A DNA stretch of 64,000 nt, taken from the NCBI GenBank assembly GCA_038146705.1, contig JAYQSB010000001.1:7166-71165 (forward strand), given 5' to 3'. A model generated the notes under the pieces. It made no database searches. It saw nothing but the letters and a program-made list of their open reading frames with translations, and had not been told where the DNA came from. Source of the stretch: Candidatus Poseidoniales archaeon (lineage in GTDB: Archaea; Thermoplasmatota; Poseidoniia; Poseidoniales; Poseidoniaceae). A program made the translations under genes and the position numbers. This document shows, piece after piece, positions 58,820 through 63,914 of this stretch; the first letter of the stretch is position 1; the number at the start of each line of letters is the position of its first letter.

Positions 58820-59518
58820 TCACTCGTCTGGAATTTCGATGTATGGCACGATCGTGTAGTCAAAGACCATCAATTCAACGGTGTAGTCGACCGTCTCACC
58901 ACCATCTTCATGATTGCATTGAATTGAACCACCTTCTTGAGAAGCGACTGATATACTCACATCGTGGTCGCCAAGACCTGCTCCCATAGAATCGATTTGG
59001 GATTTGATTTCGTTCATGGAGAGACCTGAGACGACAGCCCCTATCATCGATTCATTGTACCATGTTGCCATTGCATAATGAGAGCCTGAACCCTCGTTAT
59101 TCTGTCCGTCTGCAGAACCTGTGAATTCGAGATGACTTACTGAACCAGTGATTGTGTCAGCAGCAGGATTTCCAGCACCTGGGGCGGCACAACCTAAACC
59201 AGAAGTGGTTTCATCTTCGCCGTACGTCATGCTGATTCTGATGCCGACGATATTAAGTTCTTCAGCGTTGTTAACATCGACTGTGTTGTAGGTCATTGGC
59301 CATGTTTCACCATTTCCGATGAATTCGGAACCAGAATCAAGTTCGATGTAGGTGACTTCGCCATTGACTTGGTAATCGCCCACGCCACCACCGAGTGAAC
59401 CATCGGCTCGGTCGGCTGCAATCGAGAAATAGGTTGGGAAGGCAATAAGGAAAAAAGCGATGCACGCAACGGTAATTTGAGCGTCTCTATTTTCTTTGAG
59501 GTCATCCATCGAATACAT
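58820..59518 (-). CDS. Secreted/membrane-anchored protein, unknown function
   Basis: N-terminal TM ITVACIAFFLIAFPTYFSIAA. Gly/Ser-rich ectodomain. Confidence 0.5.
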   Translation of the reverse strand: MYSMDDLKENRDAQITVACIAFFLIAFPTYFSIAADRADGSLGGGVGDYQVNGEVTYIELDSGSEFIGNGETWPMTYNTVDVNNAEELNIVGIRISMTYGEDETTSGLGCAAPGAGNPAADTITGSVSHLEFTGSADGQNNEGSGSHYAMATWYNESMIGAVVSGLSMNEIKSQIDSMGAGLGDHDVSISVASQEGGSIQCNHEDGGETVDYTVELMVFDYTIVPYIEIPDE

Positions 59519-59572: not shown

Positions 59573-60178
59573 TTATTCTTCCTCTACAAAAACATCGAAT
59601 GTCGGTACCAATTCTTCTGAAATTGGCCATCCCCTTTTGCCGACGTCAAGGCCAATATTTGCAAATTTTTTCTTCGCCCTTCGCCACACAGGGAGCAAGC
59701 CACCAATCTTCGACCGTTCACCAAAGGTCCACTGCCACGGACAACGGTCACACCTTGATGCCCATAAACGAATGAGGTCTTGATTTGGAGCGTGCTCTAT
59801 GCCTTGTGGCAACGTCCAGGACACGATATTGATCGCTCCTGATGAGCCTCTTGTTTCGGCCCAAGCACAGAGTTCGAGCCCTGCATATGGCCCGGTTGTC
59901 AATTGCAATGTAAGTGTGCGAGTAGCTTGAGCCATCGGCATGATGATTGCAAATCGGTCGACAAGTCGAGATCCTTCAAGACGTCGACACGACCAATTGA
60001 ATTCTTCAGCAATCAATCGCATTGTCTTAATGCTCTGGACAGGACCCACACTAACCTCAAAGTCGTGCGTTCTCCTTCGAACCATGAATGTCCTTTGCCG
60101 ACGTATTTCATCAATACTGTGGCGGAAAGTCTTGCGTCCTTGATTGCCAAAGACTCGAATTGCCGTTGGTTGACTCAT
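59573..60178 (-). CDS. Basic hypothetical protein downstream of the stalk operon
   Basis: 201-aa ORF on the same strand as rpl12. Arg/Trp-rich. No motif recognised. Confidence 0.45.
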   Translation of the reverse strand: MSQPTAIRVFGNQGRKTFRHSIDEIRRQRTFMVRRRTHDFEVSVGPVQSIKTMRLIAEEFNWSCRRLEGSRLVDRFAIIMPMAQATRTLTLQLTTGPYAGLELCAWAETRGSSGAINIVSWTLPQGIEHAPNQDLIRLWASRCDRCPWQWTFGERSKIGGLLPVWRRAKKKFANIGLDVGKRGWPISEELVPTFDVFVEEE

Positions 60179-60286: not shown

Positions 60287-60595
60287 TCAGCCGAAGAGCG
60301 AGCCAAGACCTTCGAAGCCGCCGTCGTCGTCATCTTCTTCTTCGGCAGGTGCTTCTTCAGCAGCTGGAGCAGCGTCTCCACCACCGCCTGCAGCAGGAGC
60401 AGCAGCGGCAGCAGGTGCGGCAACAGCCTTGGTCATGGCATCAGCAATGTCAACGCCAGCGAGCGAAGCAACGAGTGCTTTTACTCGAGCAGAATCAACG
60501 TCAACTCCAGCGCCCTTGAGCACCTTTGTCACAGCGTCATCTGTGATTTCTTGTCCGGCAGCGTGTAACAACATAGCAGCATATACATATTCCAT
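60287..60595 (-). CDS. rpl12: 50S ribosomal stalk protein P1 (aL12)
   Basis: MEYVYAAMLLHAAGQEITDD... and C-terminal EEEDDDDGGFEGLGSLFG. Confidence 0.95.
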   Translation of the reverse strand: MEYVYAAMLLHAAGQEITDDAVTKVLKGAGVDVDSARVKALVASLAGVDIADAMTKAVAAPAAAAAPAAGGGGDAAPAAEEAPAEEEDDDDGGFEGLGSLFG

Positions 60596-60623: not shown

Positions 60624-61646
60624 TCAACCGAAAAGGTCGCCAAGTCCGCCAAAGCCGGCGTCCTCATCGTCCTCGTCTTCTTCCTCCTCGGCTTCGGTTG
60701 GGGCCTCGGATTCGCTCGTACTGACATCGCTTGCTGCACTGGCGGCTGCTGTTGCAGCGGCACCGAGCATTTCTGCAAGTTCGTCATCGAGTGCGTCTGA
60801 GCCAAGTGCACCAGCAACACCCATGAGGCTTGCATGTGCTCTGGCAATGAAGTGTGGCATGGTTTCAGCGTTGGTAATCTCCGCTTCCATGGCCACAGAG
60901 AAGGCCTCGCCACTTGCTTTCGCAATGAGGGTCGGCACGGTTTGTGGTGTGAACCATCGGATGAAACAGGCGACGTTGAACGCACCTGCAGCGTATCCGA
61001 TGAGGTCTTCACCGAATTGATCGTAATCGATATCGAGTGTTTCTGGTGAGAAAACAACGCCTTCTTCAATCGTTCCGCAAAGTCGAAGACCGGTGATGAT
61101 GGGGTTGATGCCAACTTTTGACAACATCATACCGAGGTCGCCTTCGAATGTTTCTCCGGCGTTGAGTACGGTGGTTGTTTTCTGAATGTGGACAGAGCCT
61201 TGCATGATTTTAGCTGGAATACCAACGGAGTTGAGTTCACCAACAATTGGTCCGGGTTTCATGCCAGTGTCTTGTTTTTCGACAATGATGTCGAAAGGAG
61301 CGACATCCCCAGGCTTTGCTGCACGACCGGCTTCAGTCTTCTTGAGTTCGGTAAAGAGTGCAAATGAGTTGAGATCGCTCGATGATACGAGTGCAGGTTG
61401 TACAGCAGTTTCGTAAAGTGTTTCAAGGTCTGCTTCATCAAAGCCTGCTTTGTCCCAAGCGATTTTCATGAGTCGCTTCTTGGCGACCATAATTTCCATG
61501 TTGTCCCGCAGGTTTGCCCTCATGCCAATCATCGAATCGGCAGGAACACCGTGTATGTCGATGACAGCAATGGTTTCACCGCTGGACAGCAAAGCATGAA
61601 GCTTGTCGACTGTGTCTCGCTTCCAGTTCATGACTTTTGGAATCAC
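60624..61646 (-). CDS. rplP0: 50S ribosomal stalk protein uL10 (P0)
   Basis: N-terminal WKRDTVDKLHALL...VIDIHGVPA and C-terminal EEEEDEDDEDAGFGGLGDLFG. Confidence 0.93.
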   Translation of the reverse strand: MIPKVMNWKRDTVDKLHALLSSGETIAVIDIHGVPADSMIGMRANLRDNMEIMVAKKRLMKIAWDKAGFDEADLETLYETAVQPALVSSSDLNSFALFTELKKTEAGRAAKPGDVAPFDIIVEKQDTGMKPGPIVGELNSVGIPAKIMQGSVHIQKTTTVLNAGETFEGDLGMMLSKVGINPIITGLRLCGTIEEGVVFSPETLDIDYDQFGEDLIGYAAGAFNVACFIRWFTPQTVPTLIAKASGEAFSVAMEAEITNAETMPHFIARAHASLMGVAGALGSDALDDELAEMLGAAATAAASAASDVSTSESEAPTEAEEEEDEDDEDAGFGGLGDLFG

Positions 61647-62343: not shown

Positions 62344-62634
62344 TCAATTAAACCGCTCGTCCCATTCTCCTTTTGCAATGATTTCGAGGGCGTCATTGGC
62401 CCAGTGCCCGTCGACCTTTACTCGCATTGAGACGCAAGTTCCGATAACTTCGCGTGTTTGTGCTTTGAGATCTCGGCCAGTCAAGTGTCCGTCACCTGCT
62501 TTTTGTTGTGCAATTTTCATTGCTTCTTCCAAAGGCAAGTTTTCAGTCGCTGCTTCAATGCTTCCGTTGCACTTCTTCACACCAAGAGATTTCTTGATGA
62601 GTTCTGAAGTCCATGGTTTTGGCATTGAATTCAA
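62344..62634 (-). CDS. rpl11: 50S ribosomal protein uL11, C-terminal (rRNA-binding) domain only
   Basis: PKPWTSELIKKSLGVKK...EVIGTCVSMRVKVDGHWANDALEIIAKGEWDERF aligns by eye with the C-terminal half of archaeal L11 (as I recall it, ...PPTTALIKKELGIE...EVLGTCGSMGVTVEGK...). An in-frame stop lies at 62641..62643. The likely start is the ATG at 62625, preceded by GAGGAG. The N-terminal domain is absent. Confidence 0.8.
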   Translation of the reverse strand: MNSMPKPWTSELIKKSLGVKKCNGSIEAATENLPLEEAMKIAQQKAGDGHLTGRDLKAQTREVIGTCVSMRVKVDGHWANDALEIIAKGEWDERFN

Positions 62635-62702
62635 CTCCTCTCATAACCTGAGCAACTTGCCCGACTTGAAACCCCTATTTAATCGCACCGCGCTGCCTAA
62701 TG

Positions 62703-63629
62703 TTAGCCATCAACACGCTCGTAAACACGAACATGGTCACCACGCATACTGATTGTCATAGGAATTGGATTTTCGTACAGGTCAAGACTGACCTCGTTTT
62801 TGGTGTCTTGGACTGAGAGAACACGAGCCTTCTCGCCTTTGAATGCACCAGAAATAATTTCGACAATACATCCAATTTCGATACCGTGAGTCACCGACTT
62901 CGGTTCGAGGTAAGGCAGGATATCCTCGAGTGGTGCTTCGCCAGGTAGAACCGATTTTGCATTCTTGAGCGGTGTTTGATTAACACCTCGTCGAGAAGAG
63001 GGGTCACGGCCACCACTTCGACCGATCAATTTCTCAACGTGGTGAAGTGCACTTGCTTCAACGAAGACATACCCTCGCATTCCTGTTGGGTGGAGAATCG
63101 ACATAATCTCTTCATCGAGGTCTGTAAGCGAACCCGAACCAGTGAGGCGGGCGCCCATTTCGTCAACAACTCGAATTTCGGAGTTGATGGCGGTTTTGAC
63201 GATGTAAAGAAATGAACCGACAGAGCCGTACATTTCCCGAAACAACTTGTCGGAGTTATCCATGTCCAAATTTGAAAAGATACAGGTATACTCCTGAATT
63301 TTACCTGGGTCAACCCATTCAGCGTGGGTGTAAATACCCGCAGGTTCGACATCTTCCGTAGCGGAAACGACGAGAACAGGCACGACATCAACAAGGCTAC
63401 CTGAGTCCATGACTATTCCTCTGTCTGGGCCGTGGCCGTGGTACACGAGTGCCTCGGTTGGAATACCTGTACATTCTGCAACTCGTGTAATGACTTCTTC
63501 TGGGTCTGTGCCTGAACCAGAGCCCCAGACACCATCCCACATGCCAGAGAAGTCGGCAGCTGTGTTGCTGCGCTTCAGCATGAGAAGTTTTTCTTCAAAT
63601 CGTACAAATGCTACAAATGCTTCACTCAT
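62703..63629 (-). CDS. spt5: Transcription elongation factor Spt5 (NusG) with an N-terminal Nudix-like extension of about 130 aa
   Basis: C-terminal half has an NGN domain (FLYIVKTAINSEIRVVDEM...GYVFVEA) and a KOW domain (GCIVEIISGAFKGEKARVLSV). N-terminal half is FVAFVRFEEKLLMLKRSNTAADFSGMWDGVWGSGSGTDPEEVITRVAECTGI. Confidence 0.85.
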   Translation of the reverse strand: MSEAFVAFVRFEEKLLMLKRSNTAADFSGMWDGVWGSGSGTDPEEVITRVAECTGIPTEALVYHGHGPDRGIVMDSGSLVDVVPVLVVSATEDVEPAGIYTHAEWVDPGKIQEYTCIFSNLDMDNSDKLFREMYGSVGSFLYIVKTAINSEIRVVDEMGARLTGSGSLTDLDEEIMSILHPTGMRGYVFVEASALHHVEKLIGRSGGRDPSSRRGVNQTPLKNAKSVLPGEAPLEDILPYLEPKSVTHGIEIGCIVEIISGAFKGEKARVLSVQDTKNEVSLDLYENPIPMTISMRGDHVRVYERVDG

Positions 63630-63633
63630 TTTT

Positions 63634-63640
63634 TCACCTC
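63634..63640 (-). promoter_or_regulatory. Shine-Dalgarno site GAGGTGA before the long Spt5 ORF
   Basis: The reverse complement of tcacctc lies 4 nt upstream of the ATG at 63629 and overlaps the secE stop. Confidence 0.6.
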
Positions 63641-63914
63641 AGGGATTGGCGATGCCGAAGACATCGTGAATAAGCCAAGGAAAGAAGTTGTCCATCAAGA
63701 CGAGAATTGCAAAGCCGATGGCTCCAAGAACGAAAAGGCCAATGCCGCAAATAATTGCCGTCTGGCGGAATTCTTGTTTTGTCGGTTTCTTTGCCATTCG
63801 GATAATACGTGCCCAGGACCCGCGAGTGATGCGTCGAAATTGCGACTCAATCCAATCTTGACGGTCTTGTACACGCTGTTCAAATGACTTTTGATTTGCA
63901 TTTTCGTCAGACAT
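63639..63914 (-). CDS. secE: Preprotein translocase subunit SecE (Sec61-gamma)
   Basis: RMAKKPTKQEFRQTAIICGIGLFVLGAIGFAILVL. Conserved secE-spt5-L11-L1-L10-L12 order. Confidence 0.85.
   Translation of the reverse strand: MSDENANQKSFEQRVQDRQDWIESQFRRITRGSWARIIRMAKKPTKQEFRQTAIICGIGLFVLGAIGFAILVLMDNFFPWLIHDVFGIANP

Follow-up and report, generated by a model that had tools for sequence, protein, structure and literature searches.

A C-domain-only ribosomal protein uL11 in Marine Group II archaea (Poseidoniales)

The stalk gene cluster and its uL11 gene

The window, as we call the whole 64,000-nucleotide stretch of DNA that was analyzed, carries six genes in a row on its minus strand, in the order secE, spt5, L11, L1, P0, and P1. 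The DNA is from a Poseidonia-like archaeon of Marine Group II (MGII, Poseidoniales), a group of very abundant ocean plankton. The genes are listed here with the sequence features around uL11 and a further gene that follows P1.

63639..63914, minus strand: secE (Pfam PF00584)
62703..63629, minus strand: spt5, 308 amino acids, with the NGN domain from residue 141 and the KOW domain at residues 255 to 283
62626..62702, minus strand: spt5-L11 spacer, 77 nucleotides, with a TATA-like TTAAATA at 62676-62682
62641..62643, minus strand: in-frame TGA six codons upstream of the uL11 ATG, closing the reading frame (read from the sequence and the list of open reading frames)
62635..62640, minus strand: GAGGAG, a Shine-Dalgarno-like motif 9 nucleotides upstream of the ATG at 62625 (read from the sequence)
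62344..62625, minus strand: uL11 gene, 93 amino acids (MPKPWTS...GEWDERFN), stop codon at 62344-62346, encoding the C-terminal rRNA-binding domain and the archaeal C-terminal helix
62294..62340, minus strand: hairpin in the L11-L1 spacer, GCGGGAGAGGU-loop-ACCUCGCUGACCGC, with an invariant asymmetric loop
61643..62287, minus strand: uL1 gene, 214 amino acids (Pfam PF00687, E 3e-46)
60624..61646, minus strand: P0/uL10 gene, 340 amino acids, of ordinary architecture (PF00466, PF17777, acidic tail)
60287..60595, minus strand: P1 stalk protein gene, 102 amino acids (Pfam PF00428)
59573..60085, minus strand: conserved MGII-only gene after P1, 170 amino acids from a conserved Met (201 amino acids from 60178 in the list of open reading frames)

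The L11 open reading frame (62344..62634, minus strand) encodes 96 amino acids if translation starts at a TTG codon and 93 amino acids if it starts at the ATG at 62625. The GAGGAG motif is a putative ribosome-binding site of the uL11 gene, and the TTAAATA in the spacer might be a promoter of its own. The stop codon of spt5 is a TAA at 62703..62705, and spt5 and uL11 occupy different frames. The initial annotation had reported the in-frame stop, the GAGGAG before the ATG, and a distance of 77 nucleotides to the spt5 stop codon that left no room for an N-terminal domain. Reading the sequence again confirmed these coordinates and the size of the spacer.

Bacteria, archaea, and eukaryotes all share the N-terminal domain (NTD) of uL11, a component of the GTPase-associated center that moves when factors bind and that supplies half of the pocket for thiostrepton and micrococcin. 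The domain was not recognized in the protein encoded in the window. Pfam matched PF00298 only (residues 6 to 74, E 1.2e-10, 42 bits against a cutoff of 21.4), over profile positions 2 to 69 of 69, and gave no match in the 93 residues to PF03946, which represents the NTD. The NCBIfam archaeal L11 equivalog PRK01143 aligned over model positions 71 to 158 of 164 only, and because only those positions are present, the score of 62.6 bits falls below the equivalog cutoff of 162. Protein Data Bank (PDB) chains of Pyrococcus furiosus and Methanocaldococcus jannaschii L11 aligned with the window protein from residue 71, at the PPT hinge. Since that alignment covers residues 71 to 158, the start of the window uL11 corresponds to the Pro-Pro-Thr hinge that links the two domains. 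The structure was modeled by AlphaFold2 with the use of 14 relatives (pLDDT 82.5, pTM 0.74). In a Foldseek comparison with the PDB, the model came closest to M. jannaschii L11 of the P-stalk base (5d8h_C, TMq 0.77), and the remaining top matches were uL11 as well.

Thus, the window gene is a uL11 orthologue by position, C-domain sequence, and fold: it lies in the orthologous place in the cluster, and its product has the fold of the L11 C-terminal domain. It does not fit the two-domain definition of the family, in that it has the C-terminal domain PF00298 without the NTD PF03946. These results bear out the early suggestion that the 93- to 96-amino-acid reading frame represents only the C-terminal domain of L11. 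All of the names given by NCBI that were seen for such proteins of MGII were "hypothetical protein."

The initial annotation had also described the cluster as otherwise canonical. L1, P0, and P1 do have ordinary lengths and domains, and Spt5 ends in a normal KOW domain, but the description does not hold for the beginning of Spt5 or for the region beyond P1. Spt5 usually has a length of 150 amino acids or so. The Spt5 in the window has an N-terminal extension (63210-63629, minus strand) of about 140 amino acids before the NGN domain, with no Pfam match, and this extension is kept in the MGIIa loci and in MGIIb (47% identity over 307 amino acids). Ordinary Spt5 proteins of 146 to 149 amino acids were found in the nearest relative with a full-length L11 and in Woesearchaeota with a C-domain-only L11, which are discussed below. 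By eye only, the extension resembles a degenerate Nudix fold (..LLMLKRS...MWDGVWGSGSGTDPEEVITRVAECTGIP).

The 170-amino-acid protein encoded after P1 is basic (pI about 9.1), has eight Trp residues and the motifs EGSRLVDRFAIIMP and RCPWRWTFGERS, and has no Pfam match. Its family comprises 87 clusters, and every match with an organism name is from MGII-type marine archaeal metagenome-assembled genomes (MAGs). The gene follows P1 in 59 of the 80 MGIIa loci that were examined, in a locus of a third MGII sub-lineage (L090), and in MGIIb loci, where it starts 35 nucleotides after P1. An AlphaFold2 model of the protein was confident (pLDDT 85, pTM 0.83) and had no fold match in the PDB, L11-like or other (best TM 0.26). 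Downstream of this gene lies an open reading frame of 232 amino acids (58820-59518, minus strand), which is conserved across at least 20 MGIIa loci; its place in MGIIb loci is taken by an open reading frame of 241 to 245 amino acids. Neither has a Pfam match.

The hairpin in the L11-L1 spacer is conserved as well. RNAalifold analysis of 17 MGII spacers predicted 13 pairs, and compensatory changes occur at 4 of these; the hairpin is also found in an MGIIb locus (L083). In the outer helix, UCAC pairs with the GUGA of the L1 Shine-Dalgarno sequence. The hairpin is a candidate L1 autoregulatory operator, which would mimic the L1 site of 23S rRNA. Rfam recognized no family in the window or the L11 region, the hairpin included, and no tRNAs were found in the window.

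Distribution of C-domain-only uL11

Relatives of the window uL11 formed 102 clusters at the 90%-cluster level. Almost all of them are 85 to 98 amino acids long with PF00298 only, and they come from many independent assemblies named as Poseidoniales or "Euryarchaeota archaeon." A synteny survey with one genome per GTDB species detected 241 species loci, of which the best 80 were examined. These 80 were assigned to Poseidoniales, Poseidoniaceae, or Poseidonia, the exception being one contig binned as Verrucomicrobiales. They include the 2.06-Mb MG-II chromosome CM001443.1, and the gene is also carried on megabase-scale contigs and by single-cell genomes and MAGs. The C-domain-only form with the MPKPWTS start was kept in 80 of the 80 examined loci (of 241 detected), and full-length L11 was not found at any of them.

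The same protein architecture was found beyond MGIIa. The form present in MGIIb (Thalassarchaeaceae), a uL11 of 92 amino acids with 46% identity to the window protein, came to light when 1.84 billion representatives were searched exhaustively with phmmer. Its cluster comprises 362 members; the protein is listed in 1037 index blocks and occurs on contigs that exceed 1 Mb. The MGIIb arrangement is FtsZ-secE-spt5-L11c-L1-P0-P1 (L11c being the C-domain-only L11 gene), with uL11 in the same position as in the window. A third MGII sub-lineage (L090 and L091) has a form of 101 amino acids that starts with MSDGWTSRRIR. In the window, in the 80 MGIIa loci, in four MGIIb loci (L092 to L095), and in both loci of the third sub-lineage, uL11 is directly upstream of L1-P0-P1. 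Because the C-domain-only uL11 is common to both MGII families, the deletion predates their split.

Pairwise dN/dS values for MGIIa uL11 (75 species, 2188 pairs) did not exceed 0.27, and their median was 0.057. The C-domain-only uL11 is under strong purifying selection.

The initial annotation had considered an assembly deletion as one explanation for the short gene. Public L11 entries with a single domain can indeed be false, as frameshifts (L081, L082) and a scaffold gap (L084) described below illustrate. However, the structure found in the window recurs in hundreds of independent assemblies, which include single-cell genomes, MAGs, and the chromosome CM001443.1. A decaying pseudogene would also not be expected to have an intact frame, a conserved start and stop, and the dN/dS values given above. 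The 102 clusters, the loci from 241 GTDB species, the megabase-scale contigs, and the selection on the gene refute an assembly deletion, and we regard an assembly or sequencing artifact, or a pseudogene in the window contig, as having a negligible chance of being the explanation. Anatomy, conservation, and order-wide distribution demonstrate that the NTD-less uL11 is a lineage trait encoded by a native gene. A truncation of the stalk base in this lineage, the other possibility raised at the outset, is supported for the whole order Poseidoniales, MGIIa and MGIIb alike. Full-text searches of the literature on L11 of MGII or Poseidoniales and on L11 without the NTD found no account of a C-domain-only uL11. 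It appears to be an undescribed variant of a known protein; no published description was found.

The region upstream of the gene differs among MGIIa species. The spt5-L11 spacer measures 77 to 102 nucleotides in 29 of the 80 loci, which are those with the spt5 stop within about 100 nucleotides. In 50 of the 80 loci spt5 is at least 1 kb from L11c or absent from the fetched upstream flank, some of these flanks being short. The operon of the MGIIa species that have no adjacent spt5 has a conserved noncoding upstream block of its own, which reads in frame as ..RDYIGVFCRLNAHIVSNGVET. In one locus (L027, 3590-5848) the upstream neighbor is a divergent, large surface protein with Asp-rich repeats of a calcium-binding type.

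C-domain-only uL11 was also observed outside MGII. Marine Candidatus Woesearchaeota (P0328; L085 to L087, 5001-5270) have a uL11 of 89 amino acids with PF00298 only, recorded in 332 index blocks and on contigs of up to 448 kb. The ATG of this gene overlaps the spt5 stop codon (ATGA). The gene follows spt5, and there is no L1 after it; L1-P0-P1 are nearby on the opposite strand. A Micrarchaeota MAG (P0305) has a uL11 of 93 amino acids, again with PF00298 only, directly after S3-L29, and it is present in two independent assemblies (L088, 4001-4282; L089, 884-1165). A profile hidden Markov model (HMM) of the NTD, described below, found no NTD in the flanks of the Woesearchaeota and Micrarchaeota genes. 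Both cases are genuine C-domain-only uL11 proteins. In comparison with MGII they have 33 to 35% identity and different gene contexts, and they belong to DPANN lineages with small genomes. The low identity and the different contexts suggest that these losses were probably independent of that in MGII.

Other candidates did not withstand inspection. A further apparent C-domain-only protein (P0298) was rejected because a scaffold gap of Ns interrupts the locus and an NTD reading frame lies just upstream (L084, 803-1454), and two more (P0246, P0272) were set aside because they look like cut gene calls. Frameshifts in long-read assemblies have produced false "N-domain-only" L11 entries in public collections (L081, 4001-4482; L082, 4001-4517). 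Since some domain-only L11 entries are artifacts, each such case, and any survey of the domains of ribosomal proteins, needs to be checked at the level of the locus. The nearest relative with a full-length L11 (P0235, L096) was evaluated as a means of bracketing the loss and rejected; its L1 and P0 are only 30 to 33% identical to those of the window, and it is uninformative on MGIII.

Searches for an N-terminal domain

The initial annotation had stated that no other frame in the window contains the NTD. This was confirmed with two approaches. Five L11 sequences, which served as probes only, were compared with the window by tblastn; they recovered the C-terminal domain only, and the NTD was not found in any frame. 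The best tblastn match in the NTD range among relatives (E 0.18) was rejected as an Arg-rich, out-of-frame junk open reading frame. The second approach was the NTD profile HMM, which was built from 120 real archaeal N-terminal domains taken from a profile search of 5.8 billion proteins and was run with all filters off (--max) on six-frame, stop-to-stop open reading frames of at least 25 amino acids. It detected no NTD in the window and the 80 MGIIa loci (688 kb; best E 1.4) or in a further 101 kb of MGII loci, four of MGIIb and two of the third sub-lineage (best E 2.3). As a control on sensitivity, it recovered a divergent NTD outside its training set (L084) with an E value of 4e-20.

It is possible that translation joins an NTD to the C-terminal domain by readthrough, frameshifting, or a noncanonical upstream start. 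Beyond the closeness of spt5, nothing was found in favor of such recoding. The 77-nucleotide spacer is too small for about 65 codons, and spt5, with its ordinary KOW end, is read in a different frame. The stop-to-stop extensions in frame upstream of MPKPWTS show no conservation at the protein level, and in 78 of the 80 loci they do not exceed about 50 codons (L020 and L039 have longer ones). Fifty of the 80 loci have no adjacent spt5 in the fetched flank (some flanks are short), and the NTD HMM gave no score to any frame of the upstream DNA. Recoding is therefore so improbable that it hardly merits further consideration.

A more substantial alternative is that an NTD is still made from another locus, as a separate protein, as part of another protein, or within a full-length paralogue, and joins the ribosome in trans. 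The scope of the searches leaves some room for this. All of the roughly 790 kb of MGII DNA covered by the NTD HMM is one orthologous neighborhood, up to 10 kb on either side of uL11. On the protein side, the profile search of 5.8 billion proteins gives the best 120 of 266 matches, a set that seems to favor short proteins. The cluster also has two conserved MGII-specific features, the N-terminal extension of Spt5 and the 170-amino-acid gene after P1, in which a displaced domain might be sought.

Several results argue against an NTD elsewhere. An HMM that detects a divergent control gave no signal in the window or in the 790 kb of MGII loci. There was no Poseidoniales-named NTD protein among the best 120 of the 266 matches, and no Tara Oceans entries were among those 120, whereas several MGII C-domain clusters do come from that source. 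Two NTD-only proteins on long contigs (P0158, P0161) were rejected as separate NTDs; they are frameshift-split L11 proteins of other archaea, located beside a thermosome gene. Thus, both NTD-only proteins that were checked, like the C-domain-only call at a scaffold gap, are artifacts in archaea other than MGII. The 170-amino-acid gene was rejected as a displaced NTD, having neither an NTD HMM signal nor a structural match. The Spt5 extension was also rejected, since it lies at the end of Spt5 away from uL11 (the end next to uL11 being the normal KOW domain) and gave no NTD HMM signal and no Pfam match. Furthermore, the same loss is seen in three lineages, for which deletion is a simpler account than repeated splitting. 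By itself the NTD has only a low affinity for rRNA, and it is normally the C-terminal domain that holds it on the ribosome (PMC1802607). A separately made NTD would have difficulty in remaining attached there. We consider it unlikely that MGII encode the NTD at another locus.

A probable reduced stalk base and its relation to known systems

The explanation that we consider probable is an ancient deletion of the NTD throughout the order Poseidoniales, which left a native, working uL11 and a reduced stalk base with no separate NTD. In an ancestor of the order, the uL11 gene lost the NTD of about 70 codons, with the cut at the Pro-Pro-Thr hinge. What is left is the 93-amino-acid protein, consisting of the C-terminal domain and the archaeal C-terminal helix. 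MGII uL11 would still bind helices 43 and 44 (H43/H44) of 23S rRNA in the 50S subunit, as the conservation of the RNA-binding helix and the strong purifying selection suggest, and it would stabilize the GTPase-associated center and the stalk base. The factors aEF1A, aEF2, and aIF5B would be recruited and activated by the P0-(P1)n stalk together with the sarcin-ricin loop; a mobile L11 N-domain would play no part in this, and no N-domain would be encoded separately. The ribosome would also be without the protein half of the thiostrepton/micrococcin pocket, so that it should be naturally insensitive to thiopeptides. For rRNA binding, factor recruitment, and antibiotic insensitivity, these expectations are drawn by analogy from other organisms.

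Findings in other organisms make such a deletion conceivable. Binding of L11 to rRNA is mainly a property of the C-terminal domain, and the NTD is the part that moves and that binds thiostrepton (PMC1802607). Bacillus subtilis ΔrplK is viable without L11, with slow growth and full thiopeptide resistance (PMC11731312), and yeast lacking L12 is viable with a doubling time of 5 h (PMC2175356). Since B. subtilis and yeast can survive with none of the protein, loss of the N-domain alone is plausible.

A variant of the ancient deletion is that the MGII stalk base was remodeled, with a lineage-specific protein, for which the 170-amino-acid protein is the best candidate, replacing the uL11 N-domain or compensating for its loss. 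The gene is the sole candidate for a compensating component in the cluster, and it is linked to the stalk by position only. We consider this remodeling very unlikely. If it were true, the MGII stalk operon L11c-L1-P0-P1-orfX would encode a new ribosome-associated component.

If an ancient deletion is the correct explanation, protein synthesis in MGII appears to proceed in the absence of a uL11 domain that is in contact with translation factors and thiopeptide antibiotics and that to our knowledge is otherwise universal. A free-living, globally abundant order that has long been without the uL11 NTD would represent a natural experiment on the purpose of this domain. Intrinsic thiopeptide insensitivity in a major ocean group is a prediction of this explanation. 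The MGII protein could serve directly as a minimal uL11 in hybrid ribosomes of Haloferax or Thermococcus. The parallel cases in Woesearchaeota and Micrarchaeota suggest that the evolutionary route is a recurrent one. Marker sets that include PF03946 would be expected to score uL11 as missing in every MGII genome. For ribosome specialists, the surprise is tempered by the known dispensability of L11.

Canonical archaeal uL11, as in M. jannaschii (5col, 5d8h) and P. furiosus (4v6u chain BH), is the closest point of comparison. The MGII protein shares with it the orthologous gene position between spt5 and L1, the C-domain and archaeal C-terminal helix, which align over residues 71 to 158 with 36 to 39% identity, the fold (TMq 0.77), and the GTCxSM motif of the RNA-binding helix. 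In contrast to canonical uL11, the MGII protein is without the entire NTD, about 70 amino acids that correspond to PF03946 and include the GPPLGPALG motif.

In domain content, the MGII protein is equal to the L11 C-terminal fragments that have been studied in the laboratory with the 58-nucleotide GTPase-center RNA (1hc8, 1y39), and these fragments are among its Foldseek matches. They demonstrate that the C-domain alone can bind rRNA, and a nuclear magnetic resonance study names it the main binder (PMC1802607). However, the laboratory fragments are engineered, bacterial, and studied in vitro, whereas the MGII protein is the natural gene product of a free-living lineage and has the archaeal C-terminal extension.

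Thiopeptide-selected B. subtilis strains with a deletion of rplK or of Pro22 (PMC11731312) and yeast lacking L12 (PMC2175356) resemble MGII in that a function of the NTD surface has been lost. Thiopeptide insensitivity with a working ribosome is also the phenotype that, by analogy, would be expected in MGII. The differences are that the mutants either make none of the protein or have point lesions in it, at a cost to growth, whereas MGII keep the C-domain under strong purifying selection, in a form that is ancient and fixed across the order.
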